Assembly (NCBI RefSeq): GCF_000298215.1
Contig: NZ_BAHD01000001.1
Location: 1 to 32,000 of the forward strand
DNA: 32,000 nucleotides
Origin: Kineosphaera limosa NBRC 100340
Lineage (GTDB): Bacteria > Actinomycetota > Actinomycetes > Actinomycetales > Dermatophilaceae
Direction: 5' to 3'
The translations under genes and the position numbers were made by a program. Under the pieces are notes generated by a model that had not been told where the DNA came from, did not search any database, and saw nothing but the letters and a program-made list of their open reading frames with translations. The number at the start of each line of letters is the position of its first letter. Within the stretch, counting starts at the first letter, position 1. Positions 9,982-32,000 of this stretch are shown here, in pieces.

Positions 9982-10000
9982 CATTCGTTCAGAACATTCG

Positions 10001-11778: not shown

Positions 11779-11955
11779 GGGCCATGACCTCGGTCACATA
11801 TGGGTCTTCAGCGCCTGGTAGATGCGGGGTTATCCCGGAAAGGGGTACGCACCCCTAGTGCGCATCCTGGACGAAATGTACTGTGCCCGTAGTGAGCTCA
11901 GCGGCTGGGCTGGTGCGTAACCGACTTCGATTCGCAAAGAGTTGAAGGTTGTGGC

Positions 11956-13629: not shown

Positions 13630-13656
13630 GTTGCGGTCCTGCGCCAGACTGCCGTC

Positions 13657-14976
13657 ATGACGCGAACGTTCCAGGGGTCGATCGCTGCCGCCCAGCGGCT
13701 TGCCCACCTGGTGCCGGGCGGCGCCCACACCTACGCCAAGGGGCCCGACCAATACCCGGCGGACTGCCCGTTGGTCATCGAGCGCGGTCGGGGCGCGCAC
13801 GTCTGGGATGTCGACGGCAACGAGTACGTCGAATACGGGGCGGGCCTGCGGTCGGTCATTCTGGGGCACGCGCATCCGCGGGTCGACGAGGCGGTGAGCG
13901 CCGCGCTGAGGCAGGGTTTGAACTTCGTGCGCCCGAGCCGGCTGGAGCTGGCCGCTGCGGAAGACTTCTTGGCGGCCGTGCCAACGATGGAGATGGTGAA
14001 GTTCGCCAAGAACGGATCGGACGTCACCACCGCGGCGGCCAAGCTCGCCCGGGCGGCCACGGGCCGTGATCTCGTCGCGATCTGCCGCGACCAGCCGTTC
14101 TTCTCCACCGACGACTGGTTCATCGGCACAACGCCCATGGCCGCCGGCGTGCCGGAGTCGACGCGCGAGCTGACGGTCAGCTTTCCCTACGGTGACTTGG
14201 AGTCGCTGCGGGCGATGTTCGCCCGCTACCGCGACCGGGTCGCCGCGATCCTTCTGGAGGTCGAGGCGGGCGCCAGCACTGCGCCTCCGGGCTACTTGCA
14301 GTCGCTCATCGACCTCGCGCACGAGCACGGCACGCTGGTGATCTTCGACGAGATGATCACCGGGCTGCGCTGGGCCCTGGGTGGCGCGCACAGCCTGCAC
14401 GGCGTGGTGCCCGATCTGTGCACTTTCGGTAAAGCCCTGGGCAACGGCTATTCGGTCTCGGCGCTCGCGGGCCGCCGAGAGATCATGGAGCTGGGCGGCC
14501 TCAACACCGACGCCGATCGGGTGTTCCTGCTCTCCACGACGCACGGGGGGGAGAGCACGGGTCTGGCCGCGATGCGCGCCACCCTGCAGGTGCACCGCGA
14601 GGAGGAGGTCGCGGCACGACTGATGGCGATCGGCGGACGCCTGCGCGCGGCCGTCGAGGAGGTCGTAGCGGAGGCGGGTCTGAGCGACTACGTGCAGGTG
14701 CGCGGCCGGGACTGCAACCTCGTCTACGTCACCCTTGACGGGCAGGGCCAGCCCTCGCAGCCCTTCCGCACACTGTTCATGCGACAATTCATCCACCACG
14801 GCGTCGTCGGTCCCAGCTTCGTCGTCAACACCGCCCTCACCGACGCAGACATCGAGGCGACCGCCGCCGCCGTGCGCGCCGCTCTGCCCGTCTACGCTGC
14901 GGCGCTGGAAACCGGCGACCCGACCCCGTATCTGGGTGGGGCCAGCGTCAAGCCGGTGTTCCGCGCGAAAGCCTGA
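13657..14976 (+). CDS. Class III PLP-dependent aminotransferase (glutamate-1-semialdehyde aminomutase-like)
   Basis: LVPGGAHTYAKG...RGRGAHVWDVDGNEYVEYGAGLRSVILGHAHP at the N-terminus, then IFDEMITGLR and the PLP-lysine context TFGKALGNGYSVSA, match the class III / GSA-AM-like family. Confidence 0.85.
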   Translation: MTRTFQGSIAAAQRLAHLVPGGAHTYAKGPDQYPADCPLVIERGRGAHVWDVDGNEYVEYGAGLRSVILGHAHPRVDEAVSAALRQGLNFVRPSRLELAAAEDFLAAVPTMEMVKFAKNGSDVTTAAAKLARAATGRDLVAICRDQPFFSTDDWFIGTTPMAAGVPESTRELTVSFPYGDLESLRAMFARYRDRVAAILLEVEAGASTAPPGYLQSLIDLAHEHGTLVIFDEMITGLRWALGGAHSLHGVVPDLCTFGKALGNGYSVSALAGRREIMELGGLNTDADRVFLLSTTHGGESTGLAAMRATLQVHREEEVAARLMAIGGRLRAAVEEVVAEAGLSDYVQVRGRDCNLVYVTLDGQGQPSQPFRTLFMRQFIHHGVVGPSFVVNTALTDADIEATAAAVRAALPVYAAALETGDPTPYLGGASVKPVFRAKA

Positions 14977-14984
14977 CCAGCCGA

Positions 14985-16121
14985 TCAGTCGACGTCGGTG
15001 AGGGTTGGCAGCGGCACGACGAAGCGGGCGTGCAGGCCGCGGTCGCGCAGGGAGCCAACGACCTCCGGCGCGATATCCCAGGTGAGCACGGCGACCACAT
15101 CAGGCGCGGCGGCCACCAGCTCCTCGGGAGAGACGATCCGGATGTGCGCGCCGGGCAGCCGCCGACCCTGCTTGCCGGGGGAGAGGTCGGCGACGAGCGG
15201 CACGAGGTCGGCGCCGATGCCGGCGACGTTGAGAAAGGTGACTGCCTTGGATCCGGCGCCGTACGCCGCGACGGAGCGGCCGGCCGCCTCCTCCTCCAGG
15301 AGGTCGCGCAGGCCGTCGGTGGCCGCTCGGGCCCGCGCAGCGAGGCTTTCGTAGCCGGTCGGCGTGGTCGCCAGCGCGGCTCGTTCCGCAGCCAGGATTC
15401 GCTCGACGTCGCCGCTGGGGTGTGCTGGTGCGTGTTCGGTGCGGCGGGCGACGACGACGAGGCAGCCGCCGAAGACGTCCTCCTCCCAGGCGTCGACGAC
15501 GGTCAGCCCGTGCCGAGCGCAGGCCGCCGACCAGGAGTGCAGCGAGAAGTACAGCGGGTGCCCGTGGCGGACGGTGTCGAACTGGGCGTCGAGCAGTTGG
15601 CGCAGGGCGTGGTGAAACTCGATGACGAGCAGCCCGTCGTCGCCGAGCGCCGCGACGCGCTGAGCGAGCTCGGGCTCGAGGTCGTCGGCGTGGATGATCG
15701 ACTGGTTGTCGATGACGAGCGCGGCACCGCCCTCGACCGCCACCCCGCCGTGGGCGTCCAGTGCGGCGGTCCACGAGCCGCCGTGGTGGCTGGCGAACTC
15801 TCGGTAGGTCCAACTTTTGGGCAGGTCGAGACGATCGAGCAGGCGGTCGATCACCTCTACGGCGTGCCGTTGTAGGGTCGCCGATTCGACGGCCAGCGGC
15901 TCCTCGGGCGCGGGGGAGTCGTGATCAAGCTGCAGCAGCGCGCACTCGCCGCACAGCAGCAGACCGAGCGGCCACCGCGGATCGGGGCCGGGGTCGTCGG
16001 CCGGCGGAAAGTGGTCGCACGCGGGCTGCGGGCCCAGGTCGAGGACGCTCGCCAGGTCGTCGCTGCCGCAGCCGCGGCACCGGGTCACCGGGGTCGCCGC
16101 TCCAAGGGTTGCGTCGCTCAT
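14985..16121 (-). CDS. C-methyltransferase-family paralogue with a shortened, degenerate SAM-binding core
   Basis: The start is the internal ATG (CAT at 16119-16121), whose A is shared with the PIG-L stop (TGATG). It has an N-terminal zinc ribbon (CRGCGS...CGEC). Its C-terminal domain aligns by eye with the 17660-18937 gene (VAAYGAGSKAVTFLNVAG...RRLPGAHIRIVSPEE versus VVGYGAPGKGNTLLNHCG...KFLPGSRIPVLPPEA). Motif I reads FASHHGG instead of VASNDGY, and the core is visibly shorter. Confidence 0.7.
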   Translation of the reverse strand: MSDATLGAATPVTRCRGCGSDDLASVLDLGPQPACDHFPPADDPGPDPRWPLGLLLCGECALLQLDHDSPAPEEPLAVESATLQRHAVEVIDRLLDRLDLPKSWTYREFASHHGGSWTAALDAHGGVAVEGGAALVIDNQSIIHADDLEPELAQRVAALGDDGLLVIEFHHALRQLLDAQFDTVRHGHPLYFSLHSWSAACARHGLTVVDAWEEDVFGGCLVVVARRTEHAPAHPSGDVERILAAERAALATTPTGYESLAARARAATDGLRDLLEEEAAGRSVAAYGAGSKAVTFLNVAGIGADLVPLVADLSPGKQGRRLPGAHIRIVSPEELVAAAPDVVAVLTWDIAPEVVGSLRDRGLHARFVVPLPTLTDVD

Positions 16122-16783
16122 CAGGCACCTGCGCTCAGGTCGACGGTCAGCTTCTCCACCCGAAACGCCTCGGCGTAGGGCGCCCGGCACTCCATGCCGC
16201 GCAACCGCGCCAGGGCGGAGAACGTCTCGGCGTCCCACCAGTCCTTGCCGCGCTGGCTCACGTAGTGCTCGTCGAGCACGGCCCACTTGGCGTCGATCTG
16301 CGCCCGAGTCAGGGGCACATACACGTTGGGGCGGGACGTGCCCAGGTCGCCGTCCCACTTGGGGATCTCGAAGTGCCACACGAGGTGGTCGCGAAAGGCG
16401 GTGGGGGCCAACTCGCCGAGCAGCCGGTGGTCCTGATGCGCGTCGTACCGCTGGTGCGTCAGCACGAGGTCCCAGGGCTGGCGCGCCAGGTCGGCGAGCA
16501 CGTCCTTGACCTCGTCGAAGTGCGACGGGAGCCGGGTGTCGGGCAGGTCGTGCACCGTCACCTCGATGTCGGCGGGGTTGGCCAACGCGGCCAGGCAGGC
16601 GCGGGACTCGGCGGCCCGCTCCGGCACTGAGGTCAGGATCACGGCGGCGAACTGTGTGTCGGGCCGCTGCTGCGCGAGCGCGGCGACGGTGCCGCCGGCG
16701 CCGATCTCGATGTCGTCGCAGTGCGCGCCGAGCAGCAGCACGCGCAGTGGCCGATCCAGCTGCGGCAGTGGCACATTCAGCAT
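16121..16783 (-). CDS. PIG-L/LmbE-family N-acetylglucosaminyl deacetylase
   Basis: The start is the internal ATG (CAT at 16781-16783) of the listed 16121..17398 ORF. RVLLLGAHCDDIEIGAGG is the PIG-L AHxDD metal motif, and a later HQDH is present. The gene starts 1 nt after the RfbF-like stop. Confidence 0.85.
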   Translation of the reverse strand: MLNVPLPQLDRPLRVLLLGAHCDDIEIGAGGTVAALAQQRPDTQFAAVILTSVPERAAESRACLAALANPADIEVTVHDLPDTRLPSHFDEVKDVLADLARQPWDLVLTHQRYDAHQDHRLLGELAPTAFRDHLVWHFEIPKWDGDLGTSRPNVYVPLTRAQIDAKWAVLDEHYVSQRGKDWWDAETFSALARLRGMECRAPYAEAFRVEKLTVDLSAGA

Positions 16784-16784
16784 G

Positions 16785-17663
16785 TCAGCGGCCCGACAGG
16801 GGTGCGACCGCAGCGAGTTCGTCGAATCCGGGGACGGGGCCGCCGACGCCGGCCGGGCACGAGGCGGAGACGCTGTCGGTGGCCCAGACCCGCCACGGCG
16901 CCTCGCCGGAGCGGGAGAGCTGTTCGAGTTGCTCACGCTCCTTGACCGTGTCGGCCGGCATCCAGAATCCGTCGTAGGGGTAGGCCAGCACCTTGCCCTG
17001 GTGGGTGAGGTCGGTGAGGGTGTCGCCGACGAGATCCTTGCCCGGCTGCAGGTGGTCGAGCAGTTCGCGACGCATGACGAAGTATCCGCCGTTCTCGCGG
17101 ATGTGCATCGTCGACAGCGAGCGGATGTCGGTGACGGTGTGCGCGCCGTTAGGGTCGTCGGCGTCGTCGACGTCGACGATGTGGAACGCCGATTGGGGCG
17201 GCACGGCCAGCAACGAGGCGAGGGCGGTGGACCGCTCGAAGCGCTCGATGACCTTGTCCAGCGGCGCGTCGGTGAGCACGTCGGCGTAGTTGGCCATGAA
17301 GAACTCGTCGTCGCCGAGGTGCGCGGCGACGCGGCGCAGGCGCTCCCCGATGGGGGTCTCGATGCCGGTGTGTACGAAGGTGATCTTCCAGTCGGCAACG
17401 TCCGTGGTCAGCGGCCTGACCTGGCCGTTCTCGATGACGAAGTCGTTGGAGTGGGTTTCGTCGTATTCGGTGAAGTAGCGGGAGATGTGCCGGGCACCGT
17501 AACCCATCGCGAGGATGAACTCCTTGTGGCCGAAGTGCGCGTAGTAGCGCATCACGTGCCAGATGAGCGGCCGGTTGCCGACCATCGCCATGGGTTTGGG
17601 CAGGTCGTCGACACCGTCGCGCATCCGCATGCCGTAGCCGCCGCAGAACAGCACGACCTTCAT
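16785..17663 (-). CDS. Sugar-1-phosphate nucleotidylyltransferase, glucose-1-phosphate cytidylyltransferase (RfbF/DdhA)-like
   Basis: MKVVLFCGGYGMRMRD...LPKPMAMVGNRPLIWHVMRYYAHFGHKEFILAMGY...GFWMPADT follows the RfbF pattern, although the G-x-G-T-R-L loop is atypical (GGYGMRMR). There is a strong RBS (GGAGAAGGAG). The ATG overlaps the upstream stop (ATGA at 17660-17663). A C-terminal tail extends beyond the end of the recognisable RfbF-like sequence. Confidence 0.78.
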   Translation of the reverse strand: MKVVLFCGGYGMRMRDGVDDLPKPMAMVGNRPLIWHVMRYYAHFGHKEFILAMGYGARHISRYFTEYDETHSNDFVIENGQVRPLTTDVADWKITFVHTGIETPIGERLRRVAAHLGDDEFFMANYADVLTDAPLDKVIERFERSTALASLLAVPPQSAFHIVDVDDADDPNGAHTVTDIRSLSTMHIRENGGYFVMRRELLDHLQPGKDLVGDTLTDLTHQGKVLAYPYDGFWMPADTVKEREQLEQLSRSGEAPWRVWATDSVSASCPAGVGGPVPGFDELAAVAPLSGR

Positions 17664-18937
17664 GACTGGGCTCCTTCTCCCGACGCTCCGGGTTCGACGA
17701 TCTGCAGGTGCGGAATGGCGAAGACGAGCTGGCCGCCCCAGTCGGCGACGTAGTGCAGTTGCGCGGAGATCTCGGCGCGCAGGTTCCACGGCAGCACGAG
17801 CACGTAGTCGGGGCGGGCGGCCTCGATGGCCTCGGGCGGGAGCACGGGGATGCGGCTGCCGGGCAAGAACTTGCCGTGTTTGTGGTGGTTGCGGTCGACG
17901 GTGAACTCGAGCAGGTCGGGCCGGATGCCACAGTGGTTCAGCAGGGTGTTGCCCTTGCCCGGGGCGCCGTAGCCGACGACCCGCTCGCCCTGCTCCTGGG
18001 CGTCGAGCAGGAAGCGGAGCAGGTCGCGCTTGACGACACGCACTGCCTCCTCGAAGCCGGCGTGGCCGGCGAGGCTGTGCAGCCCGGCGGCCTCCTCGCG
18101 GGCCAGCAACTCGGTGACGGCCGCGCTGGGCTCGCCGGCGGCATCGGCGTGCTGGCAGTAGATGCGCAACGAACCGCCATGCGTGCTCAGCTCGTCGACA
18201 TCGACGACCGTCAGGCCGCCGAGGGCGACGGCGCGCTGGGCGGTGAGCAGCGTGTAGTACTGAAAGTGCTCGTGGTAGATCGTGTCGTACTGGCGCTCGT
18301 CGATGAGCCGCGCCAGGTGCGGAAACTCCATGGTCAGGGTGCCGGTGGGGGCGAGCAGCGCCGCGAGACCCTTGGTGAAGTCGGCCAGGTCGGGCACGTG
18401 CGCGTACACATTATTGGCGACCACGAGGTCGGCGCGCCGATGCCGGGTCGCGATGTCGGTGCCGGTGGCCTCGCCGAGAAAGACGACCTCGGTCTCGATG
18501 CCTTGCTCGCGCGCGGCGGCCGCGGTGTTGGCTGTGGGCTCCACGCCCAGGCACGGGATGCCGGCGTCGCGGAAGTGTCGCAGCAGGTAGCCGTCGTTGC
18601 TGGCGACCTCGACGACGAAGCTGCTCGGCCCCAGCTCCAACCGCTCGATCATCGCCTCGGCGTATCGCCGCGCGTGCTCGATCCACGAGGTGGAGAAGGA
18701 GGAGAAGTACGCGTACTCGTCGGTGAAGATCTCCTCGGCGGGGATCACCTCGGGCAGTTGCACGAGCAGGCACTCGTCGCAGATCCGCACGTGCAGCGGA
18801 TAGGCGCTCTCCCCGCGCTCGCTCTCCTCGCGGGTGAGGATCGCCTCGCAGGGAGGCGATGCCCCCAGATCGACGAAGGTCGTGGTCAGCGGGGCGCCGC
18901 AGATGCGGCAGGGGAGCGAGGCTGAAGACTCAGGCAT
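17660..18937 (-). CDS. NDP-hexose C-methyltransferase family protein (zinc ribbon, class I SAM methyltransferase and C-methyltransferase C-terminal domain)
   Basis: The start is the internal ATG (CAT at 18935-18937), giving MPESSASLPCRICGAPL. A second Cys pair is present (CDEC). SAM motif I is VVEVASNDGYLL, followed by ADLVVANNVYAHVPD and the C-terminal VVGYGAPGKGNTLLN...YVLVLPWN domain typical of TylC3-like enzymes. Confidence 0.85.
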   Translation of the reverse strand: MPESSASLPCRICGAPLTTTFVDLGASPPCEAILTREESERGESAYPLHVRICDECLLVQLPEVIPAEEIFTDEYAYFSSFSTSWIEHARRYAEAMIERLELGPSSFVVEVASNDGYLLRHFRDAGIPCLGVEPTANTAAAAREQGIETEVVFLGEATGTDIATRHRRADLVVANNVYAHVPDLADFTKGLAALLAPTGTLTMEFPHLARLIDERQYDTIYHEHFQYYTLLTAQRAVALGGLTVVDVDELSTHGGSLRIYCQHADAAGEPSAAVTELLAREEAAGLHSLAGHAGFEEAVRVVKRDLLRFLLDAQEQGERVVGYGAPGKGNTLLNHCGIRPDLLEFTVDRNHHKHGKFLPGSRIPVLPPEAIEAARPDYVLVLPWNLRAEISAQLHYVADWGGQLVFAIPHLQIVEPGASGEGAQS

Positions 18938-18944
18938 GGTTGGG

Positions 18945-20351
18945 CTATTCAACCGTCCTGGCGGCCAGGCCCGCCACATAGGTGCGGAGTCGGTCCTCCT
19001 CGCTCGCCGGGGTGAACCCGGTGGCGACGATCTTGTTCAGTTGTAGGGCGCTGTGCGTCGGACGTGGTGCCATGTTCTTGCCCTCGCCGTAGACAGCGGT
19101 ACTCACCGGCGACACGTCGGCGCGGTCGCGGCCGCGCAGCTCGAAGACGTCGGCGGCGATGTCGGCCCAGGAGCGGGCCGGGCCGGTGTTCGTCAGGTTG
19201 TAGGTGCCGTAGGCGGGGCGGGTAGCCAGCAGGTGCGCGATGCCTTCGGCGAGGTCGGCGGTGAAGGTGAGGCGGCCGAATTGGTCGTCGACAACCGTCG
19301 GGCTGATGCCCTTGTCGGCCAGCATCGCCATCGTCGCCACGAAGTTCTTGCCCTCGCCCACGACCCACGTCGTGCGCACGATGTAGTGGCGCTCGTAGCT
19401 GGCGACGATCGCGTCACCGGCCGCTTTGGTCTGCCCGTAGACGCCCAGCGGGGAGAAAGGCTCGTCCTCGTCGTGCTCGGTGGCGACGCCGTCGAAGACG
19501 TAGTCGGAGGAGACGTGCACGATCGGGATGCCGTGCTCGCGGGCCCGCGCGACGATGGCGGCGACGCCGGTGACGTTCGCGGCCCAGGCCTCTCGGCGAC
19601 CCTCGGCGCTTTCCGCGGCGTCGACCGCTGTGTAGGCGGCGGCGTTGACGATCGCCTGCACCTGCGACAGGTCCAGCGCCGCGACCGAGGCCGGGTCGGT
19701 GAGGTCGCATTCCGCCCGGGTGAGGGCGCGAACGTCCGGCAGGGTCGTCGCCAGAGCCTGTCCGAGCTGACCGCCGGCGCCGATCATAAGCGTCACCGGT
19801 TGCGGCACCAGACGCGACTCGATGAGCAGCGGATGGCTCTTGTCGGCCTCCGAGAGAATGGCGTCGGCCAACGGCACCGGCCAGTCGATGCCGAGGCTCT
19901 CGTCGTGCAAGCCCACGAACGTGTACTGGTCTCGGGCCGCCGGACTCCAGTGGTCGTTGACCAGGTAGCTGTAGGCGGTCGCCGGCTCGAGGGTCTGGTA
20001 GGCGTTGCCGACGCCCCGGGGCACGAACACCGCTCGGCCAGGGGTGATCTCGCTCGTGACGACCCGCCCGTGGCTCTCGCCCTCGCGCAGGTCGACCCAG
20101 GCACCGAAGACCCGGCCGGTGGCTACCGAGACGAATTTGTCCCAGGGCTCGGCGTGGATGCCGCGGGTGACGCCTACCTCGTCGTTGAACGACACGTTCT
20201 GCTGCACCGGCCAGAAGTCCGGCAGCCCGAGCGCGGTCATCTTGGCCCGCTGCCAGTTCTCCTTGAACCACCCCCGGTTGTCACCGTGGACGGGCAGGTC
20301 GACCAGCAGCAGGCCGGGGATGTCGGTGGTGTGCACGGCGAGATCGGTCAC
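18945..20351 (-). CDS. rmlCD: Fused dTDP-4-dehydrorhamnose 3,5-epimerase / dTDP-4-dehydrorhamnose reductase
   Basis: GTG start at 20351. Residues 1 to about 180 are RmlC-like (DNRGWFKENW...GIHAEPWDKFVSV...FVPRGVGNAYQT). Residues from about 186 to 468 are RmlD-like (MIGAGGQLGQAL...NAAAYTAVDAAE...SSDYVFDG...PLGVYGQTKAAG). It is a single uninterrupted 468-codon frame. Confidence 0.92.
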   Translation of the reverse strand: MTDLAVHTTDIPGLLLVDLPVHGDNRGWFKENWQRAKMTALGLPDFWPVQQNVSFNDEVGVTRGIHAEPWDKFVSVATGRVFGAWVDLREGESHGRVVTSEITPGRAVFVPRGVGNAYQTLEPATAYSYLVNDHWSPAARDQYTFVGLHDESLGIDWPVPLADAILSEADKSHPLLIESRLVPQPVTLMIGAGGQLGQALATTLPDVRALTRAECDLTDPASVAALDLSQVQAIVNAAAYTAVDAAESAEGRREAWAANVTGVAAIVARAREHGIPIVHVSSDYVFDGVATEHDEDEPFSPLGVYGQTKAAGDAIVASYERHYIVRTTWVVGEGKNFVATMAMLADKGISPTVVDDQFGRLTFTADLAEGIAHLLATRPAYGTYNLTNTGPARSWADIAADVFELRGRDRADVSPVSTAVYGEGKNMAPRPTHSALQLNKIVATGFTPASEEDRLRTYVAGLAARTVE

Positions 20352-20393
20352 GCCAGAGTCTCTCTCGATCGGGGCAGGGTTTCTGCGCGAAGG

Positions 20394-21395
<1,002 letters not shown>

Positions 21396-21448
21396 TTACA
21401 TCTTAGGCGTGCGCCAAAGGTATCTCTGGCGTGCGTCGATATGGAGTC

Positions 21449-22324
21449 ATGCGCGGAATCATCCTGGCCGGGGGTACGGGCACCCGTCTGCACCCCATCA
21501 CGCAGGGCATCAGTAAGCAGCTCGTGCCGGTCTACGACAAGCCGATGATCTACTACCCGCTGTCGACGCTCGTGTTGGCGGGCATCCAGGACGTGTTGGT
21601 CATCACCACCCCGCACGAGGCGTCAGGTTTCGAGCGACTGCTCGGCGACGGATCCAAATTCGGGCTCGCGATCACGTACGCGCAGCAGCCGTCGCCCGAC
21701 GGACTGGCCCAGGCATTCACCATCGGCGCCGACTTCATCGGCGGCGAAGAGGTCGCCCTCGTGCTCGGCGACAACATCTTCTACGGCCATGGCCTGGGCA
21801 CCCAGCTGCAGTTGGTGCGGGGCCTGAACGGCGGGGTCGTCTTCGCGTACTGGGTCGCCGACGCCACCGCCTACGGCGTCGTCGAATTCGACGAGGCCGG
21901 CGTGGCCCGCTCCATCGAGGAGAAGCCCGCGGCGCCGAAATCCAACTACGCGGTGCCAGGGCTCTACTTCTACGACAACGACGTCGTGCAGATCGCCCGC
22001 GACCTGGCGCCTTCGGCTCGCGGGGAGTACGAGATCACCGACGTCAACCGCCACTACCTGGCCCAGGGTCGACTCAAGGTCAGCGTGCTCGAACGCGGCA
22101 CCGCGTGGCTCGACACCGGCACCTTCGACTCCCTGCACGACGCCGGCGACTTCGTCCGCACCATTCAGGCCCGCCAGGGGCTGAAGATCGGCTGCCCGGA
22201 GGAGGCCGCCTGGCGCATGGGCTTCCTCGACGACGCAGGCCTGTCCCAACGGGCCGACGCGTTGGCCAAGTCCGGCTACGGCACCTACCTGCACGGCCTG
22301 CTGGCCCACGGCCGGGGTCGTTGA
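21449..22324 (+). CDS. rmlA: Glucose-1-phosphate thymidylyltransferase
   Basis: [41 protein letters not shown] is the canonical RmlA N-terminus. An in-frame GTG at 21431 is an alternative start. The gene is divergent from rmlB across a 56-bp gap. Confidence 0.95.
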
Positions 22325-22328
22325 CCAC

Positions 22329-22420
22329 TGCCGTCCGTACGTACGTCCAGATCCTGGCCGTTGTGCTGACTGTCGACGGTTGCTGTCGCGACCGCAGCGC
22401 TCGGCAGGGACGGCAACCGC
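22329..22420. terminator. Possible bidirectional terminator or structured region between convergent rmlA and the asnB-like gene
   Basis: Nested inverted repeats are present: TGCCGTCC (22329-22336) with GGACGGCA (22408-22415), and CGGTTGC (22377-22383) with GCAACCG (22414-22420). There is also a 10-bp palindrome CGTACGTACG. No U-tract is present, so this is weak evidence. Confidence 0.25.
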
Positions 22421-22431
22421 CGCGCCGGCGG

Positions 22432-24411
22432 TCAGGCCTGCTGGAACTCCGGGACTGGCGCCGCTGACTCGGCCTGCGTCGAGGCGAGGACGCCCAGGCT
22501 GGCGGCGAAGGTGAAGAGCATGGACTCGGCCTCGCTGCAGGTGCCGGCGCGGCGGCAGTGGGCCGCGCGCTCGAGCACCGCGGGCACGTCGACGAGGTCG
22601 CCCGGGGCCCGCGCCATGAGAGCCGTCAGGGCGTCGAAGGCGCTCGGGTCGCGCAGTACGAACCGGACGTCGACCCGGAAGGCTGCCTTGGCGAAGTCGA
22701 GTTGCGCCAACGCCGGATTGTCCTGCGCGAGTCGGGCGAGCAGGCGGCGGACCGGCTGCTTACCGTTACCCGGCGCGACGAAGTCGGCGGGGGAGTGACT
22801 CAGGGCCAGTTCGGCGACGCCCGCAGACAGATACGGCGGGCGCAACTCCACCGACTCCTCCATCCACGCGTGATCGCCTTGCACCGTCAGCAGGTAGGCG
22901 CCGAGCAGGTCGCGCAGGTCGTCGTCGCGGCGATCCAGGAGCGTGGCCTCGATCGTCGGCACGTCAGGAGTGTGCGCGTCGGCGTCTGCAGCCGAGTCGG
23001 GGATCCGCTCGCAGTCGGGTGTCGTCGCGGACTGGGCGGCGGATACGGTCAGGCTCGGCGCGAGCAGACCAGCGACAGGGCGCAGCAGGTCGCCGCGGCC
23101 CGTGGGAGTGCCGGAGGCGAGACGCACGAGCGACCTCCAGTAGCCGCGCGCCCAGCGGGGGCCGCGCTCGGCGTCGAACTCCGGCTCACCGAAGGCGGCC
23201 CAGTCCAACTCCGTGACCGGGCCGAACAGTCCGGCGCGCGCCGCGAGGATCCGGTAGGAGTCGTAGCCCGCGAACAGCTCGTCGGCGCCCTCGCCTGACA
23301 GCACCGCTCGGATCCCCTCGTGCCGCGCGCGGCGCGCCAGGGCCGTCATACCGACCGGGCCGAGGCGCACCAGCGGCACCCGGCGGGTGGCGACGTAGTC
23401 GCGCAACACCGACACGGTCTCCGCGGGGGTCACGGTGTGCTGGATGAGGTCGAGGCCGGCGGCAGCCGCGACCTGACGTTGCCGCGCACCGACCACCTCG
23501 TCGCCCTCGAGCACCAGGCCGATGCCCCGGTCCGCGCCGAGGCGAGCGGCGATCGTCGCGATGATCGTCGAGTCGATCCCGCCGCTGATCAGGCACGACA
23601 CCGGGGTCGTCGAGCGCATCCGCGCCCGAATCGACTCAGTCAGCGCGGCCTGTAGTTGCTCCGCGAGCCCCTCGTCCGACTCGGATTCGGCTCCGGCTCG
23701 GGCCGCGGCCTGGCCAGCAGTCGCCGGTCGGGTCGCGAAGGCCTGGGCGGCCCACGAGTGCTGCTCGAACGAGCCGTCGGGTTTGGCGACGATCACCTCG
23801 CCCGGCGGCACCTGGGAGACGCCCTCGACGGCGGTCTGCCCATCCGTCGGCGCCCAGGTCGTCAACACCCCCCGCAGGCCCGCCGTCGATAGGGGCCAGT
23901 CGCCCCCGGCAAGCGCCAACAGGGACTGAAGGTTCGACGCCAAGGCCACCCCACCGGCCACCGGCGCCACGTACAGCGGGGCGATGCCGAAGCGGTCCCG
24001 CGCGGCGACGAAGGGCTCGCCGGCCGCGGTCCGCAGAACAGCGGCGAACTGCCCGTCGACAGCTGCGAAGAACGCATCTCCCTCGGCCCGCAGGCCCGCG
24101 ACCAGCGCCTCGATCTCCGAGGCGCCGGGCAGGCCGAGTCGTTCTTGCAGCGCCGGCAGGTTGAACAGCTCACCGTTGAAGACGCCGAACCCCCCGGCGT
24201 CGTCGGTGTACGGCTGATGCGCCGCGCCCTCCTGCCAGTGGATCAGACGGGAGGAGGCGACGATCGCCTGTTGGCTGTGCCACCACGCGGACTCATCGGG
24301 CCCGCGCCGGCGCAGCGCCTCCTGCACGACGGCCACGCGCTGCTCCCAGTCGGGGGCACCGCGGGCCGCTTGCACCGCGTCGGGTCCCACGACGACGGCG
24401 AAGCCACACAC
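22432..24411 (-). CDS. Asparagine synthetase B-like glutamine-dependent amidotransferase
   Basis: The start is assigned to the in-frame GTG at 24411, which makes Cys residue 2 (V-CGFAVVVG). That gives the obligatory N-terminal nucleophile of Ntn class II glutaminases. The synthetase domain has the PP-loop VSCLISGGIDST. The upstream 57 codons of the listed ORF overlap the carrier-protein gene and are rejected. Confidence 0.88.
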   Translation of the reverse strand: MCGFAVVVGPDAVQAARGAPDWEQRVAVVQEALRRRGPDESAWWHSQQAIVASSRLIHWQEGAAHQPYTDDAGGFGVFNGELFNLPALQERLGLPGASEIEALVAGLRAEGDAFFAAVDGQFAAVLRTAAGEPFVAARDRFGIAPLYVAPVAGGVALASNLQSLLALAGGDWPLSTAGLRGVLTTWAPTDGQTAVEGVSQVPPGEVIVAKPDGSFEQHSWAAQAFATRPATAGQAAARAGAESESDEGLAEQLQAALTESIRARMRSTTPVSCLISGGIDSTIIATIAARLGADRGIGLVLEGDEVVGARQRQVAAAAGLDLIQHTVTPAETVSVLRDYVATRRVPLVRLGPVGMTALARRARHEGIRAVLSGEGADELFAGYDSYRILAARAGLFGPVTELDWAAFGEPEFDAERGPRWARGYWRSLVRLASGTPTGRGDLLRPVAGLLAPSLTVSAAQSATTPDCERIPDSAADADAHTPDVPTIEATLLDRRDDDLRDLLGAYLLTVQGDHAWMEESVELRPPYLSAGVAELALSHSPADFVAPGNGKQPVRRLLARLAQDNPALAQLDFAKAAFRVDVRFVLRDPSAFDALTALMARAPGDLVDVPAVLERAAHCRRAGTCSEAESMLFTFAASLGVLASTQAESAAPVPEFQQA

Positions 24412-24412
24412 C

Positions 24413-24658
24413 TCAGATCCGCTCGTACAGCTCGCGGATCGCGCCCAGGTTGCGGAAGTCGGTCGCCTGGGCGTCGTCGAACGCCTCCTCCTCCTGCCCG
24501 GTCGCCTCGATGAGCGACTCCAGGATCGCCACGATCGACAGCGAGTCGAGCATGCCGTCGCGCGGCAGATCGTCGCTGGCACGCACCTTCTCGGCGTCGA
24601 AGGCGTAGAAGACGTTGTCGAGCAGCTCGATCTCGACCGTGTTCCAGTCGGGCTTCAT
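24413..24658 (-). CDS. Small acyl/peptidyl carrier protein (phosphopantetheine-attachment type, 81 aa)
   Basis: The start is the internal ATG (CAT at 24656-24658) of the listed 24413..25003 ORF. The protein is acidic, 81 aa long, and has a centrally placed DGMLDSLSIVAILESL (DSL Ser motif). The stop lies 1 nt before the asnB-like GTG. Confidence 0.75.
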   Translation of the reverse strand: MKPDWNTVEIELLDNVFYAFDAEKVRASDDLPRDGMLDSLSIVAILESLIEATGQEEEAFDDAQATDFRNLGAIRELYERI

Positions 24659-24722
24659 GGCTGGTCTTTCCCCTTTGCTGGCAGTGCTGGTTCTGCTGGT
24701 TGGTGGTGTGTGATGGAGCTGG

Positions 24723-25697
24723 TCAGGGACGCAGGCTTCGGTTGCGCTGGTAGCGCAGCGAGGCGGCCAGGCCCGTGGCGGCCTGGCGCAGCGCCGCCGC
24801 CTTCCAGCCCGGCGCGTGTTCCAGCGCCGCCTGCACGGCCTCGTCGCTGGGAACGCTCTCGCCGTCGCCCACCAACTGACGCAGCACGTCGGCCGGGAGG
24901 GCGTAGTAGTAGTCCTCCTGCGACTGCGCCAGCGCGTAGGTGTCGGTCGTGGGGGTGCGCTCGATGATCTGCTGCGGCACGCCCAGCTCGCGGGCGAAGG
25001 CATAGACGGCCGGCTTGGTCAGGTCGCCGATCGCGCAGATGTCGGCGGCGTCGTCGCCGTACTTGACGACGAATCCGGTGTCCAGCTCGTCGCCGTTGCT
25101 CGCGCCCACGACCGCGTAGCCCAGCGCCTCGGCCTCGGCGTAGGCGAAGAGCATGCGGGTGCGCTGCTTGCGGTTCTGGTACGCGATGAGTGCCCGCAGA
25201 TCCTCCACGGACATCCGCAGGGTCTTCTCGGGGCTGCCGTGCCGCGGGCCGATCGCCACCTCGTAGACCAGCGCGCCGAGGCGCTTGGCCACGTTGTTCG
25301 CGGCGTTCACTGAGTAGGCGTGCGTCGCCGGGTCGTAGCCCGGCTCGTACTTGCGGATGAGCTCGTTGATCTGCTCGATCGGCTGCTGCGCCTCGATGCT
25401 CGCCCCGATCGAACGCTCGACGAGCCGCACTCCCGCGTTGCTCGCAGCGGCCTCGACGAAGGCCAAGGTGTCAGGGCCGGTCGAGGTGTCGGGCAGGTAC
25501 AGCGCGACGACATTCTGCGTGCCGAGCGCCCGCGCGCACAGGTGCAGGACCACCGTGGAGTCGATGCCCCCCGACAGTTGCACCACCGCGCCGCGGCGCC
25601 CGAGCCGGTGCACCTGCTCGGTGATCCACTCACACCGCTGCTGTACCGCCTCCGGTGCTGCGACCTCGGTCCCCTCCTGCGTGCTCACCTGCGTCAC
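24723..25697 (-). CDS. NAD+ synthetase (NadE)-like PP-loop ATP pyrophosphatase, without a glutaminase domain
   Basis: GTG start at 25697, overlapping the ligase stop (GTGA at 25694-25697). The PP-loop is VVQLSGGIDSTVV. The distal NadE-type block is GASNGDELDTGFVVKYGDDAADICAIGDLTKPAVYAFARELGVP. At 324 aa it is longer than a minimal NadE as I recall that family. Confidence 0.8.
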   Translation of the reverse strand: MTQVSTQEGTEVAAPEAVQQRCEWITEQVHRLGRRGAVVQLSGGIDSTVVLHLCARALGTQNVVALYLPDTSTGPDTLAFVEAAASNAGVRLVERSIGASIEAQQPIEQINELIRKYEPGYDPATHAYSVNAANNVAKRLGALVYEVAIGPRHGSPEKTLRMSVEDLRALIAYQNRKQRTRMLFAYAEAEALGYAVVGASNGDELDTGFVVKYGDDAADICAIGDLTKPAVYAFARELGVPQQIIERTPTTDTYALAQSQEDYYYALPADVLRQLVGDGESVPSDEAVQAALEHAPGWKAAALRQAATGLAASLRYQRNRSLRP

Positions 25698-27052
25698 TTG
25701 CCACTCTCCTTAGCCGTCAATCGGTCCACGTACTTGATGTCGAACAGGGCAGCCAAGCTGCCGAACTCGGCGTGCAACGCCCGGCGGATCGGGGCGGTGC
25801 TGCGCGGTGCCGGACCGTCGGGCACCAGCTCGACGACCGGCACGACGTCGCCCCCCAGCCGGCCCGGGCGGGTGCTCACGCCGATGAGCAGCGGGGCCAC
25901 CGCCTCATGCACGATCGCGGCGACGCGGCGCGCGTCCACCTTCGTGCCCGCCACGTTGACCACGTTGTCGGCTCGGCCCGCGTGATGCCACAGTGTTGTG
26001 TGTGGCCCTGCGTCGATGCGGTGACCTAGGTCGCCGGTCGGCACCAGCTCGGTGCGCCCCGCGAAGGGCTCCAACGCCTCGTAGGGGGCGCGCAGACAGT
26101 AGGTCATCGCGTGCTCGCTGCGGGCCAGAATCGGCCGGGAGTCCGATCGGTCGTCTCGCGAGGTCGGCTCGCCCGCAGAGTTCGCGTCGCCGGCACGGGT
26201 GTCCGCCGGCGGCGCGTCATCGGCGAGCGCGAGCGTGACCCCCGGGATAGGGCGGCCGATGAGGCCCTCGGTGAAGTCGCCCGCCGGACCGTGCCAGGTG
26301 GCAAGGCGCGGCCCCATCTCCGCCTGCCCGTACATGTTCGTCAGCTGCAGCCGCGGGAATCGGCGCGCCAACGCGGTAGCCGAGGTGCCGGAGAGACGCC
26401 CACCCGCGATGAGTAGCCGCCCGAGCCGGTCGCCGGGGATCGTCGACGCCAGTAGCAGCGGAGTGTGCTGCGGCAACGCATAGAGGGCCAGCGGCTTATC
26501 GTCGTCCGCCAGCAACGGCTCAAGCCCCGGCAGGCCCCAGTCGGCGTCGGTGAAGGTGACGGGCAGGCCGGCGAAGTGGTGGGAATTGACGATGCTCAGC
26601 CCATAGGCGAAGCGCATCGGCGGAAGCGCGGCCCACACGAACTCGCGACCCAACTCCAGGACGTCGCTCACCGCCTGCGCGTGCGAAAGCACCTGCTCGC
26701 GCCGGTAGACCACGCACTTGGGTGAGCCCGTCGACCCCGAGGTGTGGTAGGCGAACACGGCCTCGGGCTCAGGGTCGGGCAGCACCGCCGCGCTGTCGCT
26801 CGGCGGATCGGTGACGCTGTGTAGGTCGGCGTTCTCGTGCAGGTCGGTGACGAGCAGCGGATCGGGGGCGAGTGCGGTCAAGGTGGCCGTCACCCGCTTC
26901 AGACCCTCGAAGGCCGCGCGCGGACGCACCACGATCGAACGGCCCTCGCCCAGCGCCCGCAGGTAGGTGGTCAGCGCACCCGTGGTTGCAGGATCGGTGT
27001 GCCGCACCGCCGGCGTGTGGTCGAGGGCGCGGGTCGCGGGCGTGAGCGTCAT
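25694..27052 (-). CDS. Adenylate-forming (AMP-dependent) ligase, stand-alone adenylation enzyme
   Basis: The start is the internal ATG (CAT at 27050-27052), overlapping the hydrolase stop (ATGA at 27049-27052). Core motifs are FAYHTSGSTGSPK, NMYGQAEMG, VPTGDLG and GRADNVVNVAGTKV. The terminal lysine lies in ...AKESGK immediately before the stop. The 335 upstream codons of the listed 787-aa ORF are an Arg/Pro-rich off-frame read. Confidence 0.85.
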   Translation of the reverse strand: MTLTPATRALDHTPAVRHTDPATTGALTTYLRALGEGRSIVVRPRAAFEGLKRVTATLTALAPDPLLVTDLHENADLHSVTDPPSDSAAVLPDPEPEAVFAYHTSGSTGSPKCVVYRREQVLSHAQAVSDVLELGREFVWAALPPMRFAYGLSIVNSHHFAGLPVTFTDADWGLPGLEPLLADDDKPLALYALPQHTPLLLASTIPGDRLGRLLIAGGRLSGTSATALARRFPRLQLTNMYGQAEMGPRLATWHGPAGDFTEGLIGRPIPGVTLALADDAPPADTRAGDANSAGEPTSRDDRSDSRPILARSEHAMTYCLRAPYEALEPFAGRTELVPTGDLGHRIDAGPHTTLWHHAGRADNVVNVAGTKVDARRVAAIVHEAVAPLLIGVSTRPGRLGGDVVPVVELVPDGPAPRSTAPIRRALHAEFGSLAALFDIKYVDRLTAKESGK

Positions 27053-28860
27053 CGGTTGCCGGCACCTTCTGCATCGGCGCGGCGAGGCGCCAGCGCGGCC
27101 AAGGCGGCGGTGCGCTCGCGCAGGAGGCGCAGGGTGGCGTGCTGCGCACGCTGGGCGAACAGGCTGTGGTCGACGTCGACATCGCGCACGACGGTCAGGG
27201 GCAGCCCGCGTTTGCGCGCCCGGCGCAGCGACCGACGGCCGCCCTTGCCCACCCAGATGCGGTGATCGTGCGGGCCGTAGAGAAGCGTGAGGATGAGGCT
27301 CGCAGGCACCTGCCGCAGCATCGGGTCGGCCAGATCCAAGGGCACGTCGTGACGCAGCGCCGAGCGCAGCCGCGGATAGCGGATGGCGAGCTCGGTGAAC
27401 GCGTAGTCCTTGGCGCGGGCGATCCGCTCGCCCAACGTCAGGGCCGGCGCGGACTCTTGGGCCTCCTCCGGCTCGGCGGCCTCGTCGGCGCTGGGGGCCG
27501 GAGCGCTGCGATCGGCGGCTTCTTGCCCGTGGTAGTGGGCGTAGAAGGCGTCGGTGTAGACGGCGGGGTCGGGGTGCCAATGCACGGTGTTGACGCCGAG
27601 AAGCTCGGTCAGCGGGGCCTCGTAGCCCGGGCCGGCGGCCCGCATGAGCGCCCACGCTCCGGCGCACACGCCTACCGCGAGCACGGGCAGGCCCGTACTG
27701 GCCAGCTCGCGCACGGCGGTCGCGACATCCTCGATCGCCTCCGGCACGTAGGGGCGCGGCTCGGGGGCCAGGTCGGGATCGGCGTCGTCGCCGATGCCGC
27801 CGCGGTCGGCGCGCAGCGACACGACGCCACGAGTCGCAAGGTCGCGAGCGGCGCGGGCCCACATGCTGCCCGGCCCGGCCTTGACCTCGGCGCCCATCGC
27901 GGTGAACAGCACCGCGACCTGCGGGTCGCCCGCAGCAGCCTGGGTGCGGATCGCGGGCAGGCGGTTGGGGCCGACCTCGCAGAGCGTCTCGGTGATGTCG
28001 ATCGGCGCGCCGTCGGGCCCGGGCTGTCGCACGGTGGCGACCGTCTGCGGCTGCCACGCCGGCAGAGGCCTGGCCGGACCGAGCCGCAGCCCTGCGACGA
28101 TCTCGGTGAGCACCGACAGCGGCACGTGCGCGAAGTACGGGGCGCCCAGCACGAGGCGCATGGCCGCGCGACGGTCGGGCTCGGTGCGGATGGCGTCGTC
28201 GGGACCCAGCTGAGCGGGTTTGGGTGCCGCTAATCCGCGAACAGAGGCGACCTGTTCGGGGTCAAGTACCGCACCGTCCAACTCCACCTGTCCGGGCCCC
28301 GTCGGGACGGGCACGGAGGTGCGGCGGATGAGCGCGTGGTTACGGACGAAAGCTGCGCCGGATACCGGCTCCCAGTAGAGGCGTTGCCCGGGGCCGGTCA
28401 GCTCGCGCGGCACCCGCGCGAGCACCGCCGCACCCAGCCGCAGACCGACGATGTGGACGGGCGCCTCGGGGCCGACAATCCGCCGGGCGTGTGCGACGAC
28501 GGCCGCGAGCTCCTGCTCCCAGGCAGCTGCCGGATCGGTCGCGGCCGCTCCCGTGGCGCTGGTGGAGTCGCCGTCACCGGACCAGGAGAACGTGTAGGCG
28601 AGCAGGCCGGCCTCGCGCGCGCGAGCGGCCAGAGCACGGGTCGTGCGGAACGAGACAACCGCCTCGCGGTCGAAGGAGGGGGCGATGACCAGGGCGCCAC
28701 GAGCCTGCCGGTCGTCGGGCTCGTCCACCCGCACGGACAGCCAACGTTCGCCGACGGGCAACCAGGTCAACACGCGATGCTGCAGCCGGGCGGATCGCTG
28801 CGACGCCTCCTCGGGCTGCTCGACCGACCGAGCCGATGCCGACCTCAGATCCAGCGCCAT
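27049..28860 (-). CDS. 603-aa protein with two alpha/beta-hydrolase-like halves (putative acyltransferase or thioesterase)
   Basis: The start is placed at ATG 28860. The 42 codons upstream of it, back to GTG 28986, have A/T-rich third positions and are not coding-like. Each half has a hydrolase-like layout: a beta-strand (ALVIAPSF / VAVLFTAMG), a G-x-GD loop (SWSGDGDS / DRGGIGDD) and an elbow (VHIVGLRLGAAV / VLAVGVCAGAWA). A distal DVDHSLF is a candidate catalytic His. The family call is by architecture only. Confidence 0.55.
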   Translation of the reverse strand: MALDLRSASARSVEQPEEASQRSARLQHRVLTWLPVGERWLSVRVDEPDDRQARGALVIAPSFDREAVVSFRTTRALAARAREAGLLAYTFSWSGDGDSTSATGAAATDPAAAWEQELAAVVAHARRIVGPEAPVHIVGLRLGAAVLARVPRELTGPGQRLYWEPVSGAAFVRNHALIRRTSVPVPTGPGQVELDGAVLDPEQVASVRGLAAPKPAQLGPDDAIRTEPDRRAAMRLVLGAPYFAHVPLSVLTEIVAGLRLGPARPLPAWQPQTVATVRQPGPDGAPIDITETLCEVGPNRLPAIRTQAAAGDPQVAVLFTAMGAEVKAGPGSMWARAARDLATRGVVSLRADRGGIGDDADPDLAPEPRPYVPEAIEDVATAVRELASTGLPVLAVGVCAGAWALMRAAGPGYEAPLTELLGVNTVHWHPDPAVYTDAFYAHYHGQEAADRSAPAPSADEAAEPEEAQESAPALTLGERIARAKDYAFTELAIRYPRLRSALRHDVPLDLADPMLRQVPASLILTLLYGPHDHRIWVGKGGRRSLRRARKRGLPLTVVRDVDVDHSLFAQRAQHATLRLLRERTAALAALAPRRADAEGAGNR

Positions 28861-28869
28861 GATGTGCCC

Positions 28870-28897
28870 CCAATACGGAAAAATGCGGAACTGCCAA
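28870..28897 (-). promoter_or_regulatory. Candidate promoter of the hydrolase-ligase-nadE-carrier-asnB operon
   Basis: The minus strand reads TTGGCA (28897-28892), a 16-nt spacer, then TATTGG (28875-28870). The -10-like element ends 9 nt before ATG 28860, which implies a near-leaderless transcript. The hexamers are imperfect and sit in a locally AT-richer stretch. Confidence 0.25.
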
Positions 28898-29165
28898 AGC
28901 AGCGCCGCTGGTGTTCCCGGTCCCCAATTGCTTCGATCCGGTAGCGCTCGCGTTCCCCATGCGCCACTCGGCTCTGCCTTTGACACTAGCAGCGCCGACT
29001 GTGGGCTGTGGGCGGGAACTTGGACGCTTGTCTCAGAGTGCCGTACGTGCGCTGCGTTGGAGGCTCCCCGTTGGACGGTTAGACGGACTGCCGGGACGGG
29101 TTGTCGGTGCTGGGATCTACCCTGGGCGCTGTTCCGCTCGACTCCTCGCGAAGGCCCGTAACTCC

Positions 29166-32000
<2,835 letters not shown>

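Follow-up and report, generated by a model that had tools for sequence, protein, structure and literature searches.

What is made by an operon that packs an adenylating ligase and a small carrier protein together with two PP-loop enzymes and a double hydrolase, in the middle of a glycan locus? The question is raised by positions 22432–28860 of a 32,000-nt stretch of high-GC actinobacterial DNA from Kineosphaera limosa (hereafter, the window), an interval filled by five tightly packed minus-strand genes; the hydrolase encoded by the first of them matches a Kineosphaera limosa protein at 100% identity. We find that the conserved unit is not this set of five but a quartet (the ligase, NadE-like, carrier and AsnB-like genes), and that the fused hydrolase is an add-on to that quartet in the Dermatophilaceae. 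On balance, and without great assurance, we take the operon to be a widespread four-gene module joined by a lineage-specific transferase, which together would decorate a surface glycan with an amide-bearing acyl group. The five genes, and the region upstream of them, are these:

27049–28860, minus strand: fused double alpha/beta-hydrolase-fold protein, 603 amino acids
25694–27052, minus strand: short, adenylating ligase of the ANL type, 452 amino acids
24723–25697, minus strand: NadE-like PP-loop ATP pyrophosphatase, 324 amino acids
24413–24658, minus strand: carrier protein, 81 amino acids, isoelectric point 4.05
22432–24411, minus strand: AsnB-like glutamine-dependent amidotransferase, 659 amino acids
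28861–29165: intergenic region of 305 bp, from the hydrolase start to the divergent mfd (ATG at 29166)

The genes and their coordinates are confirmed: third-position GC backs all five reading frames, and independent gene calls on public contigs with identical proteins give the same five lengths. A rereading of the sequence also bore out the same-strand packing described in a first-pass annotation of this DNA, that is, an ATGA overlap of hydrolase stop and ligase start (27049–27052), a GTGA overlap of ligase stop and NadE-like start (25694–25697), a TGA-G-GTG junction that places the AsnB-like GTG start one nucleotide past the carrier stop, and 64 nt separating the NadE-like gene from the carrier gene. 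None of the five proteins has membrane segments, and all are soluble. The 305-bp region is presumed to be the operon's promoter region; a promoter and terminator consensus scan of 22200–29300 returned no match, and no sigma-70 consensus in particular. We regard the five-gene operon as more than a chance grouping because the same genes recur in the same order beside mfd and rmlA in relatives, and because the four-gene core recurs across phyla.

Conservation of the quartet and of the hydrolase

When one genome per GTDB species was scanned with a hydrolase profile, the hydrolase was found only in Dermatophilaceae, at 11 loci. The order mfd / hydrolase–ligase–NadE-like–carrier–AsnB-like / rmlA–rmlB–rmlCD is kept in Piscicoccus, in two Mobilicoccus species and in one Dermatophilaceae metagenome-assembled genome (MAG); a short contig from a Kineosphaera MAG (L007) has mfd and operon genes one to three, and then ends. 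Within the Dermatophilaceae, the NadE-like protein is 85% identical, compared with 84% for mfd and 86% for rmlA.

The quartet reaches much further. A search with the NadE-like protein identified orthologous quartets, with all four proteins 40–69% identical to those of the window, in five further actinobacterial lineages. Dermatophilus congolensis is one of these; the quartet of Gephyromycinifex adjoins glycosyltransferases and WbaP; that of a Nanopelagicales MAG lies in a locus with Wzy, a flippase and PglD/PglF-like genes; those of Nigerium and of an Ilumatobacteraceae MAG are followed by a homologue of the arylamine-N-acetyltransferase (NAT) family with a GGGCxQLNGGF Cys motif. Permuted quartets were also observed: AsnB–carrier–ligase–NadE in Microvirga, beside Poly_export and polysaccharide deacetylase genes; ligase–AsnB–NadE–carrier in Oscillochloris; and carrier–AsnB–NadE–ligase, preceded by WbaP–Wza–Wzc, on a JGI contig. 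The module thus spans Actinobacteria, Alphaproteobacteria, Chloroflexi and many metagenomes.

A scan of metagenomes with a NadE-like profile yielded at least 600 matching stretches, at least 584 of which encode a relative; 80 loci were kept and searched with local hidden Markov models for the four quartet proteins, the fused hydrolase and the NAT homologue. Where at least 4.5 kb was available on both sides, all four quartet genes lay within 6 kb in 19 of 23 loci. At least ten gene orders occur among the metagenomic loci, and in 51 of the 54 that contain three or more module genes these genes are on one strand. Two sub-pairs stand out: the carrier and AsnB-like genes are adjacent in 40/47 loci, and the ligase and NadE-like genes in 36/46, against 28–56% of loci for the other pairs. 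The NAT homologue was found in none of the 80 loci, and neither was the fused hydrolase, which is also unlinked from the quartet in Dermatophilus congolensis. The five-gene unit of the first-pass annotation accordingly contracts to a core of four; nor is the NadE-like enzyme the actinobacterial addition that it had been taken for, being a signature member of the quartet that is also present in Proteobacteria and Chloroflexi.

The encoded proteins

Searched alone, the 81-residue protein has no match in Pfam, NCBIfam or the PDB sequences; its assignment comes from family profiles and structure prediction. A profile search collected thousands of relatives, some of which are named acyl carrier protein at source or marked PF00550, and this PP-binding family is matched by 15 of 38 members of the carrier family, the window protein itself being without a Pfam match. 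By hhalign, the carrier profile aligns to one PP-binding protein with 73% probability and to another not at all. In the AlphaFold model, built on the family alignment (predicted local distance difference test, pLDDT, 94.8), a long helix, 39–53, begins at Ser39; among the best 50 Foldseek matches to this model in the PDB nearly all are carrier proteins (acyl and peptidyl carrier proteins, and DltC), and the carrier of a Bradyrhizobium amino-acid:carrier-protein ligase superposes with a template-modelling (TM) score of 0.72–0.75. The predicted phosphopantetheine site is Ser39, in the sequence G-M-L-D-S-L-S at the N-terminus of this helix; positional homologues from 13 loci all keep G35, D38 and S39. 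By these profiles and models the protein is a carrier of the acyl/peptidyl-carrier fold, with Ser39 as its predicted attachment site. A PDB match to HP0242, obtained with a five-sequence carrier profile, was spurious.

The ligase belongs to the ANL superfamily, having an AMP-binding domain (PF00501; 73.5 bits, Pfam threshold 29.9) and all of the core motifs intact: A3 TSGSTGSPK (residue 104), A5 YGQAE, A7 TGD, A8 GRADNV and the terminal GK of A10. Its best NCBIfam match is a generic amino-acid adenylation domain, followed by ligase_PEP_1 (TIGR03098), for which it scores 42 bits against a cut-off of 592.35. Ligases of the distant quartets, for which ligase_PEP_1 is the best to third-best family, reach 283–464 bits, still below that cut-off. 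By the TIGRFAM description, the expected neighbour of ligase_PEP_1 is the TIGR03099 decarboxylase; no pyridoxal-phosphate (PLP) decarboxylase is present in the window. The ligase reads, by eye, RFAYGLS where adenylation domains of non-ribosomal peptide synthetases (NRPS) carry the Asp that binds the amino group, and in this respect looks more similar to acyl-CoA synthetases. The ligase has no close solved relative, and the attempt to assign its substrate failed.

Both of the remaining quartet enzymes have a SGGIDS PP-loop. In the NadE-like protein, this motif is at residue 42 of a protein with the Pfam NAD_synthase domain and no glutaminase domain; the PP-loop and core NadE motifs are intact, and, compared with the solved structures of NadE, about 60 residues are inserted. 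This protein scores above cut-off only for the generic nadE domain model TIGR00552 (131.3 versus 63.65 bits); it falls below the cut-offs of PRK00876 (NF002048, named "NAD(+) synthase"; 239.7 versus 313 bits) and PRK13980 (139 versus 255 bits). By these scores the window protein is a divergent relative of PRK00876, whose cut-off is exceeded by the NadE-like proteins of distant quartets (433–519 versus 313 bits). Since the subfamily is consistently, almost without exception, embedded in the quartet beside polysaccharide genes, we argue that nicotinic acid adenine dinucleotide (NaAD) is probably not its substrate, and that the name "NAD(+) synthase" is probably an over-annotation.

The AsnB-like protein has an N-terminal V-C-G in which Cys2 is the glutaminase residue, SGGIDS at residue 276, and matches to Pfam GATase_7 (60.4 bits), GATase_6 and Asn_synthase (131.5 bits). 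These features place it among the class II (N-terminal nucleophile) glutamine amidotransferases of the asparagine synthase B family; at 213 bits for asn_synth_AEB (TIGR01536, cut-off 267) it is not an asparagine synthase equivalog. For eps_aminotran_1 (TIGR03108) it reaches 102 bits of the 817 at cut-off; among the AsnB-like proteins of distant quartets, eps_aminotran_1 is the second-best family. We also considered whether an AsnB-like enzyme and a small protein might together denote a lasso peptide or another ribosomally synthesized, post-translationally modified peptide; the intact glutaminase Cys and domain, and the fold of the carrier, led us to reject this. The domain assignments of the first-pass annotation thus stand, by Pfam for the AMP-binding, NAD_synthase, GATase and Asn_synthase domains and by profiles, AlphaFold and Foldseek for the carrier, and the motifs that it listed (the ligase motif with its terminal GK, LDSLS, two copies of SGGIDS and the N-terminal Cys) are all present.

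The fused hydrolase has no Pfam match. Its only NCBIfam matches are hydr2_PEP (TIGR03101) over residues 48–173 (E 5.5e-8) and hydr1_PEP (TIGR03100) over residues 314–443 (E 7.6e-9); both are far below cut-off, at 32.6 versus 202.75 bits and 35.2 versus 168.45 bits, respectively. Other fused homologues reach 204.6 bits for hydr2_PEP and 141.8 bits for hydr1_PEP, and diverse fused members, some near or above the cut-offs, always pair a hydr2_PEP N-terminal half with a hydr1_PEP C-terminal half. The window protein is thus a distant relative of these two families, bridged to them by intermediate homologues, and not a member. The link to exosortase-associated families that had been proposed on first reading survives to this extent, the two hydrolase halves matching nothing else in NCBIfam; membership does not, all of the proteins being far below the family cut-offs. 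No operon protein, in fact, reaches the cut-off of any specific subfamily or equivalog model.

A profile search of 1.84 billion representatives returned 8017 relatives of the hydrolase, 901 of them at E<=1e-30, and most of the 150 best relatives are fused proteins of about 550–600 amino acids. With so many fused homologues, the fusion is common and is not an actinobacterial novelty, contrary to what had been suggested. AlphaFold predicts two alpha/beta-hydrolase-fold domains (pLDDT 85.9; predicted TM score 0.87). A search of the PDB with this two-domain model, using Foldseek, was rejected as a guide to specific function, having returned only generic esterases and peptidases.

Residue conservation was compared across 163 fused homologues. 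In the N-terminal half the nucleophile elbow reads G-L-R-L-G, with Arg141 kept in 158/163, and no His is conserved. The C-terminal half has an elbow of the form G-x-C-x-G-A-W (G-V-C-A-G in the window), in which Cys399 is kept in 157/163; the position past strand 7, residue 532, is Asp or Glu in 156/163; and His565, in a D-H motif, is kept in 161/163. We read the N-terminal half as a putative pseudo-enzyme domain and the C-terminal half as a probable Cys399-Asp532-His565 catalytic domain. A Cys-Asp-His triad suggests an acyl-transferase rather than an esterase, and a Cys nucleophile would suit acyl transfer from a thioester.

Several observations concern the wider hydrolase family. It has a constant signature and no dedicated Pfam model, and a duplication or additional domains occur in a few members (1184 amino acids). 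Distant fused homologues adjoin PP-binding genes, and one of them also adjoins glycan genes. In an Acetobacteraceae locus (L018, 4227–11869) the fused hydrolase comes after PP-binding, acyl-CoA-dehydrogenase-like, 304-residue, DUF1839 and 822-residue proteins; our conjecture is that the 304-residue protein may be an amino-acid:carrier-protein ligase resembling aminoacyl-tRNA synthetases. A contig from a soil metagenome (L028, 3441–8718) has two fused double-hydrolase genes, one on either side of a gene for a fusion of ATP-grasp and low-molecular-weight phosphatase.

The glycan setting

The operon is part of a glycan island (9982–29165) that is inserted between pth (9349–9981) and mfd (from 29166), downstream of a conserved actinobacterial run, glmU-prs...L25-pth. 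Smaller versions of the island occupy the same pth/mfd position in D. congolensis and Gephyromycinifex. Other than the operon, the island comprises:

10127–11778: WbaP-type paralogue, with a frameshift near 11503
11956–13629: WbaP/EPS_sugtrans initiator
13657–14976: PRK06209 class-III aminotransferase, which passes the 'glutamate-1-semialdehyde aminomutase' model at 640 bits
14985–16379 and 17660–18979: two TylCIII-type C-methyltransferases
about 16121–16830: PIG-L deacetylase
16785–17789: glucose-1-phosphate cytidylyltransferase-like gene in an overlapping frame (TIGR02623, E 1e-50, below cut-off)
18945–20351, minus strand: rmlCD fusion, a dTDP-rhamnose gene
20394–21392, minus strand: rmlB, a dTDP-rhamnose gene
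21431–22324, plus strand: rmlA, a dTDP-rhamnose gene convergent with the operon

The rml block (18945–22324) stays beside the operon in Piscicoccus and Mobilicoccus. Residues 93–466 and 467–557 of the intact WbaP paralogue align with the frameshifted copy in different frames, which makes that copy either a pseudogene or the result of a sequencing error. The block from 13657 to 18979 looks like a branched-sugar pathway, and from the families matched it is likely that the island encodes a CDP-hexose branch with two C-methyltransferases, an aminotransferase and a deacetylase. The dTDP-rhamnose and CDP-hexose branches would supply candidate acceptors for the operon's product. Outside the island, between the EamA transporter and L25 genes, an Rv0623-like antitoxin-type gene (7877–8170, minus strand) overlaps a 162-residue open reading frame (ORF; 7528–8016, minus strand) with no family match; this pair, at 7528–8170, may be a toxin-antitoxin system.

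The rml, WbaP and other sugar genes of the window agree with the glycan setting originally claimed for the operon, and polysaccharide neighbours extend well beyond this genome. Pfam was run on the 117 nearest flanking ORFs of the metagenomic loci. This census recorded Wzc-type AAA_31/GNVR (6–7), Bac_transf (6), Poly_export (6) and GT2 (4) domains, and GT4, Epimerase, MBOAT and Hexapep domains three times each. BLAST clustering of 398 neighbours produced the following recurrent families:

WbaP-like: 14 loci
Wzc-like: 14 loci
Wza-like: 10 loci
GT4: 8 loci
proteins of about 370 residues with a weak GNAT hint: 7 loci
proteins of about 311 residues with SGNH-like motifs: 5 loci

The SGNH-like family includes close actinobacterial relatives of the window. 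Profile searches of two recurrent neighbour families against the PDB found nothing, and in Pfam these gave no more than the weak hints of GNAT and SGNH. The quartet has MBOAT genes beside it in two of 23 metagenomic loci, L053 (10325–14854) and L054 (7424–15279); in L053, the MBOAT gene and a 292-residue protein come after a second pair of ligase and carrier genes, an arrangement that resembles a Dlt-type set. The acyl-transfer-type genes beside the quartet therefore vary from a Cys alpha/beta-hydrolase to NAT-like, SGNH-like, GNAT-like (weakly) and MBOAT proteins. No polyketide synthase (PKS) or NRPS megasynthase, and no exporter, recurs beside the module. The link to glycan loci made in the first-pass annotation holds for the commonest neighbours, which are polysaccharide genes; it does not extend to Nigerium and Ilumatobacteraceae, where glycan neighbours are lacking.

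A possible pathway and its alternatives

Among the closest known systems is the accessory set of exosortase A (XrtA)/PEP-CTERM loci, which likewise combines an ANL ligase, a small carrier, an AsnB-like enzyme and two alpha/beta-hydrolase units in a polysaccharide setting. The scores of the window proteins for the models of that set are nonetheless far from the cut-offs (35 versus 168, 33 versus 203, 42 versus 592 and 102 versus 817 bits), and the window differs further in its fused hydrolases, its NadE-like enzyme, its want of a PLP decarboxylase, exosortase and PEP-CTERM protein, and its Gram-positive actinobacterial host. No exosortase or PEP-CTERM gene occurs within the 32 kb, a context unlike that of exosortase A; the first-pass annotation was also correct that neither a PLP decarboxylase nor an MBOAT gene is present there.

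In the Dlt system (DltA, DltC, the MBOAT protein DltB, and DltD), which D-alanylates teichoic acids, cargo for a wall polymer is put by an adenylating enzyme on a dedicated carrier of about 80 residues, a logic that the module would share, and the carrier model superposes on DltC with a TM score of about 0.7. On the other hand, the window proteins are soluble and include two amidotransferases, the ligase is nearer to acyl-CoA synthetases than to DltA, and neither MBOAT nor DltD is found among the window genes scanned. The analogy with Dlt that was initially invoked for the operon is thus a limited one.

A third comparison is with WbpS-type AsnB amidotransferases of O-antigen and exopolysaccharide (EPS) loci, which we take to form uronamides. 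These too are glutamine-dependent AsnB homologues in polysaccharide loci, whereas the module's AsnB-like gene is coupled to a carrier gene and is always accompanied by a ligase and a second PP-loop enzyme. An OxyD-type AsnB homologue makes a malonamyl polyketide starter, by amidating the carboxylate left free on a dicarboxylic acid that is bound as a thioester; this chemistry would be a precedent that fits the pairing of the carrier and AsnB-like genes, and the setting differs in that no PKS genes are nearby.

Our literature searches turned up no study that characterises the hydrolases or the ligase of the exosortase set, or a polysaccharide cluster with NadE, AsnB, carrier and ligase genes. 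The nearest reports are of wbpS-labelled AsnB genes of a PEP-CTERM EPS cluster as hits in a transposon screen for biofilm genes (PMC3684757), and of a TIGR03100 homologue in an EPS cluster that is listed only as a predicted hydrolase (PMC3584217). In the literature found, the four-gene module is previously uncharacterised, and as carrier-dependent glycan decoration it is of a new form. Taken as a whole, the first interpretation of this locus is partly supported.

We propose the following sequence of events. The ANL ligase would adenylate a carboxylic acid that probably bears two or more carboxylates, and thioesterify it to phosphopantetheine on Ser39 of the carrier. The AsnB-like enzyme would turn a free carboxylate into an amide with glutamine-derived ammonia, probably on the carrier-bound acyl group, since the carrier gene adjoins the AsnB-like gene more often than any other. 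The NadE-like enzyme would amidate a second carboxylate, either that of the same acid before loading or that of a nucleotide-linked uronic acid; the ligase gene has the NadE-like gene as its most frequent neighbour. It is this pair of carboxylate-activating PP-loop enzymes, together with the adjacency sub-pairs, that suggests more than one carboxylate on the substrate and, we infer, a division of labour in which the AsnB-like enzyme acts on a carrier-bound species and the NadE-like enzyme beside the ligase or on a nucleotide-linked carboxylate. In the Dermatophilaceae, the Cys399-Asp532-His565 domain would then take over the acyl group as a thioester and pass it to a glycan precursor, at an amine or a hydroxyl, with the N-terminal domain, in which Arg141 is in the place of the nucleophile, serving as a non-catalytic binding partner. 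Since the operon encodes soluble proteins only, the site of this transfer would be the cytoplasm, and its acceptor a nucleotide-sugar or a lipid-linked intermediate. The data establish the genes, their domains, the fold of the carrier, the conservation of catalytic residues and of the module, and its association with glycan loci; the substrate, the target of each amidating enzyme, the acceptor and the role of the hydrolase in off-loading are all put forward conditionally. More generally, a quartet that is reshuffled and yet conserved, its polysaccharide neighbours and the varied acyl-transfer-type genes beside it point to the synthesis of an acyl-carrier donor for polysaccharide decoration, with a last transfer step that varies by lineage.

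Several points count against this proposal. Neither substrate nor acceptor can be read from the sequences, and the ligase is very divergent, its best PDB match being at E 3e-7. A simple mono-acyl decoration would leave two amidating enzymes unexplained. There is no phosphopantetheinyl transferase gene within the window. Pfam gives the SGNH-like and GNAT-like calls weak scores (E 0.025–0.05). The association with glycans is one of neighbourhood alone, and the Dermatophilaceae loci are not mutually independent. As for the hydrolase, what speaks for its participation, which we infer, is the ATGA overlap and synteny within one family.

This last point is the basis of the alternative that survives best, although we consider it unlikely: that the hydrolase is separate from the quartet, acting as an independent glycan-related esterase or acyltransferase whose gene lies upstream by chance in the Dermatophilaceae, while the quartet's product goes to an enzyme encoded elsewhere. 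A Mobilicoccus MAG carries the hydrolase without an adjacent quartet, its neighbours being genes of the GT4, GT2, GH18 and WbaP types; a D. congolensis MAG has it alone next to a Wzy_C gene, and the D. congolensis quartet, between mfd and wbaP–pth, has no hydrolase next to it; the absence of the hydrolase from all 80 metagenomic loci is to be added. Set against these cases are the overlap of hydrolase and ligase genes and a gene order that is the same in five species or MAGs. In addition, the NCBIfam names place a homologous hydr1/hydr2 pair and a same-family ligase together under exosortase A, distant fused homologues also adjoin carrier-protein genes, and the Cys nucleophile would be apt for transfer from a thioester.

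Quite unlikely, in our estimation, is that the product of the quartet is a small soluble metabolite, an amidated acyl-amine for instance, released from the carrier by the NAT-like protein or the hydrolase as amide synthase; the glycan neighbours would then reflect shared regulation or a shared island. In ansamycin pathways, amide synthases of NAT-like fold do release carrier-bound chains, and it is in Nigerium and Ilumatobacteraceae that a NAT homologue with the Cys motif follows a quartet with no glycan genes nearby. Some distant fused hydrolases, moreover, adjoin acyltransferase and methyltransferase genes typical of natural-product clusters. Yet genes for polysaccharide initiation, export and glycosyl transfer are the commonest neighbours in independent lineages, no megasynthase or exporter recurs beside the module, and the window operon itself lies within an island of sugar-nucleotide and WbaP genes. 

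Very improbable is the idea that these are housekeeping neighbours, with an ammonia-dependent NAD synthetase, an asparagine synthetase or LtsA-type peptidoglycan amidotransferase, and an unrelated ligase and carrier: the NCBI family name, the intact PP-loop and core NadE motifs, a NadE-like protein as conserved in the Dermatophilaceae as mfd and rmlA, and a position among the core genes pth and mfd are compatible with it, but unrelated genes are not expected to remain linked across phyla despite reshuffling (19/23 complete, at least ten orders, 51/54 on one strand), and the insertion of about 60 residues and scores below the PRK00876, PRK13980 and asn_synth_AEB cut-offs also stand in its way.

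We return, then, to the four-gene module with a lineage-specific transferase as the preferred account. A more far-reaching form of it, which we offer tentatively and would not yet call probable, is that the quartet is a phylum-spanning pathway for a new amide (possibly diamide) acyl substituent of capsular, exopolysaccharide or wall polysaccharides, that PRK00876 is mis-named, and that the hydr2/hydr1-type proteins are a new class of carrier-dependent glycan acyltransferases. If this acyltransferase reading is true, it also explains the long-unassigned accessory hydrolases of exosortase A loci, for which the predicted Arg-bearing pseudo-enzyme domain and Cys-Asp-His domain would provide a first mechanistic handle. 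The same comparisons suggest that a subfamily named "NAD(+) synthase" by NCBI may have a different substrate.

Acyl, aminoacyl and amide substituents set the charge, the antigenicity and the phage and immune recognition of surface polysaccharides, and most of the enzymes that install them are not known. A compact four-gene module beside Wza, Wzc and WbaP machinery is a defined and directly testable candidate for such an activity. Kineosphaera limosa, Mobilicoccus and Piscicoccus have the module and its candidate transferase in one operon, and Dermatophilus, though the hydrolase is unlinked in D. congolensis, has a related system.

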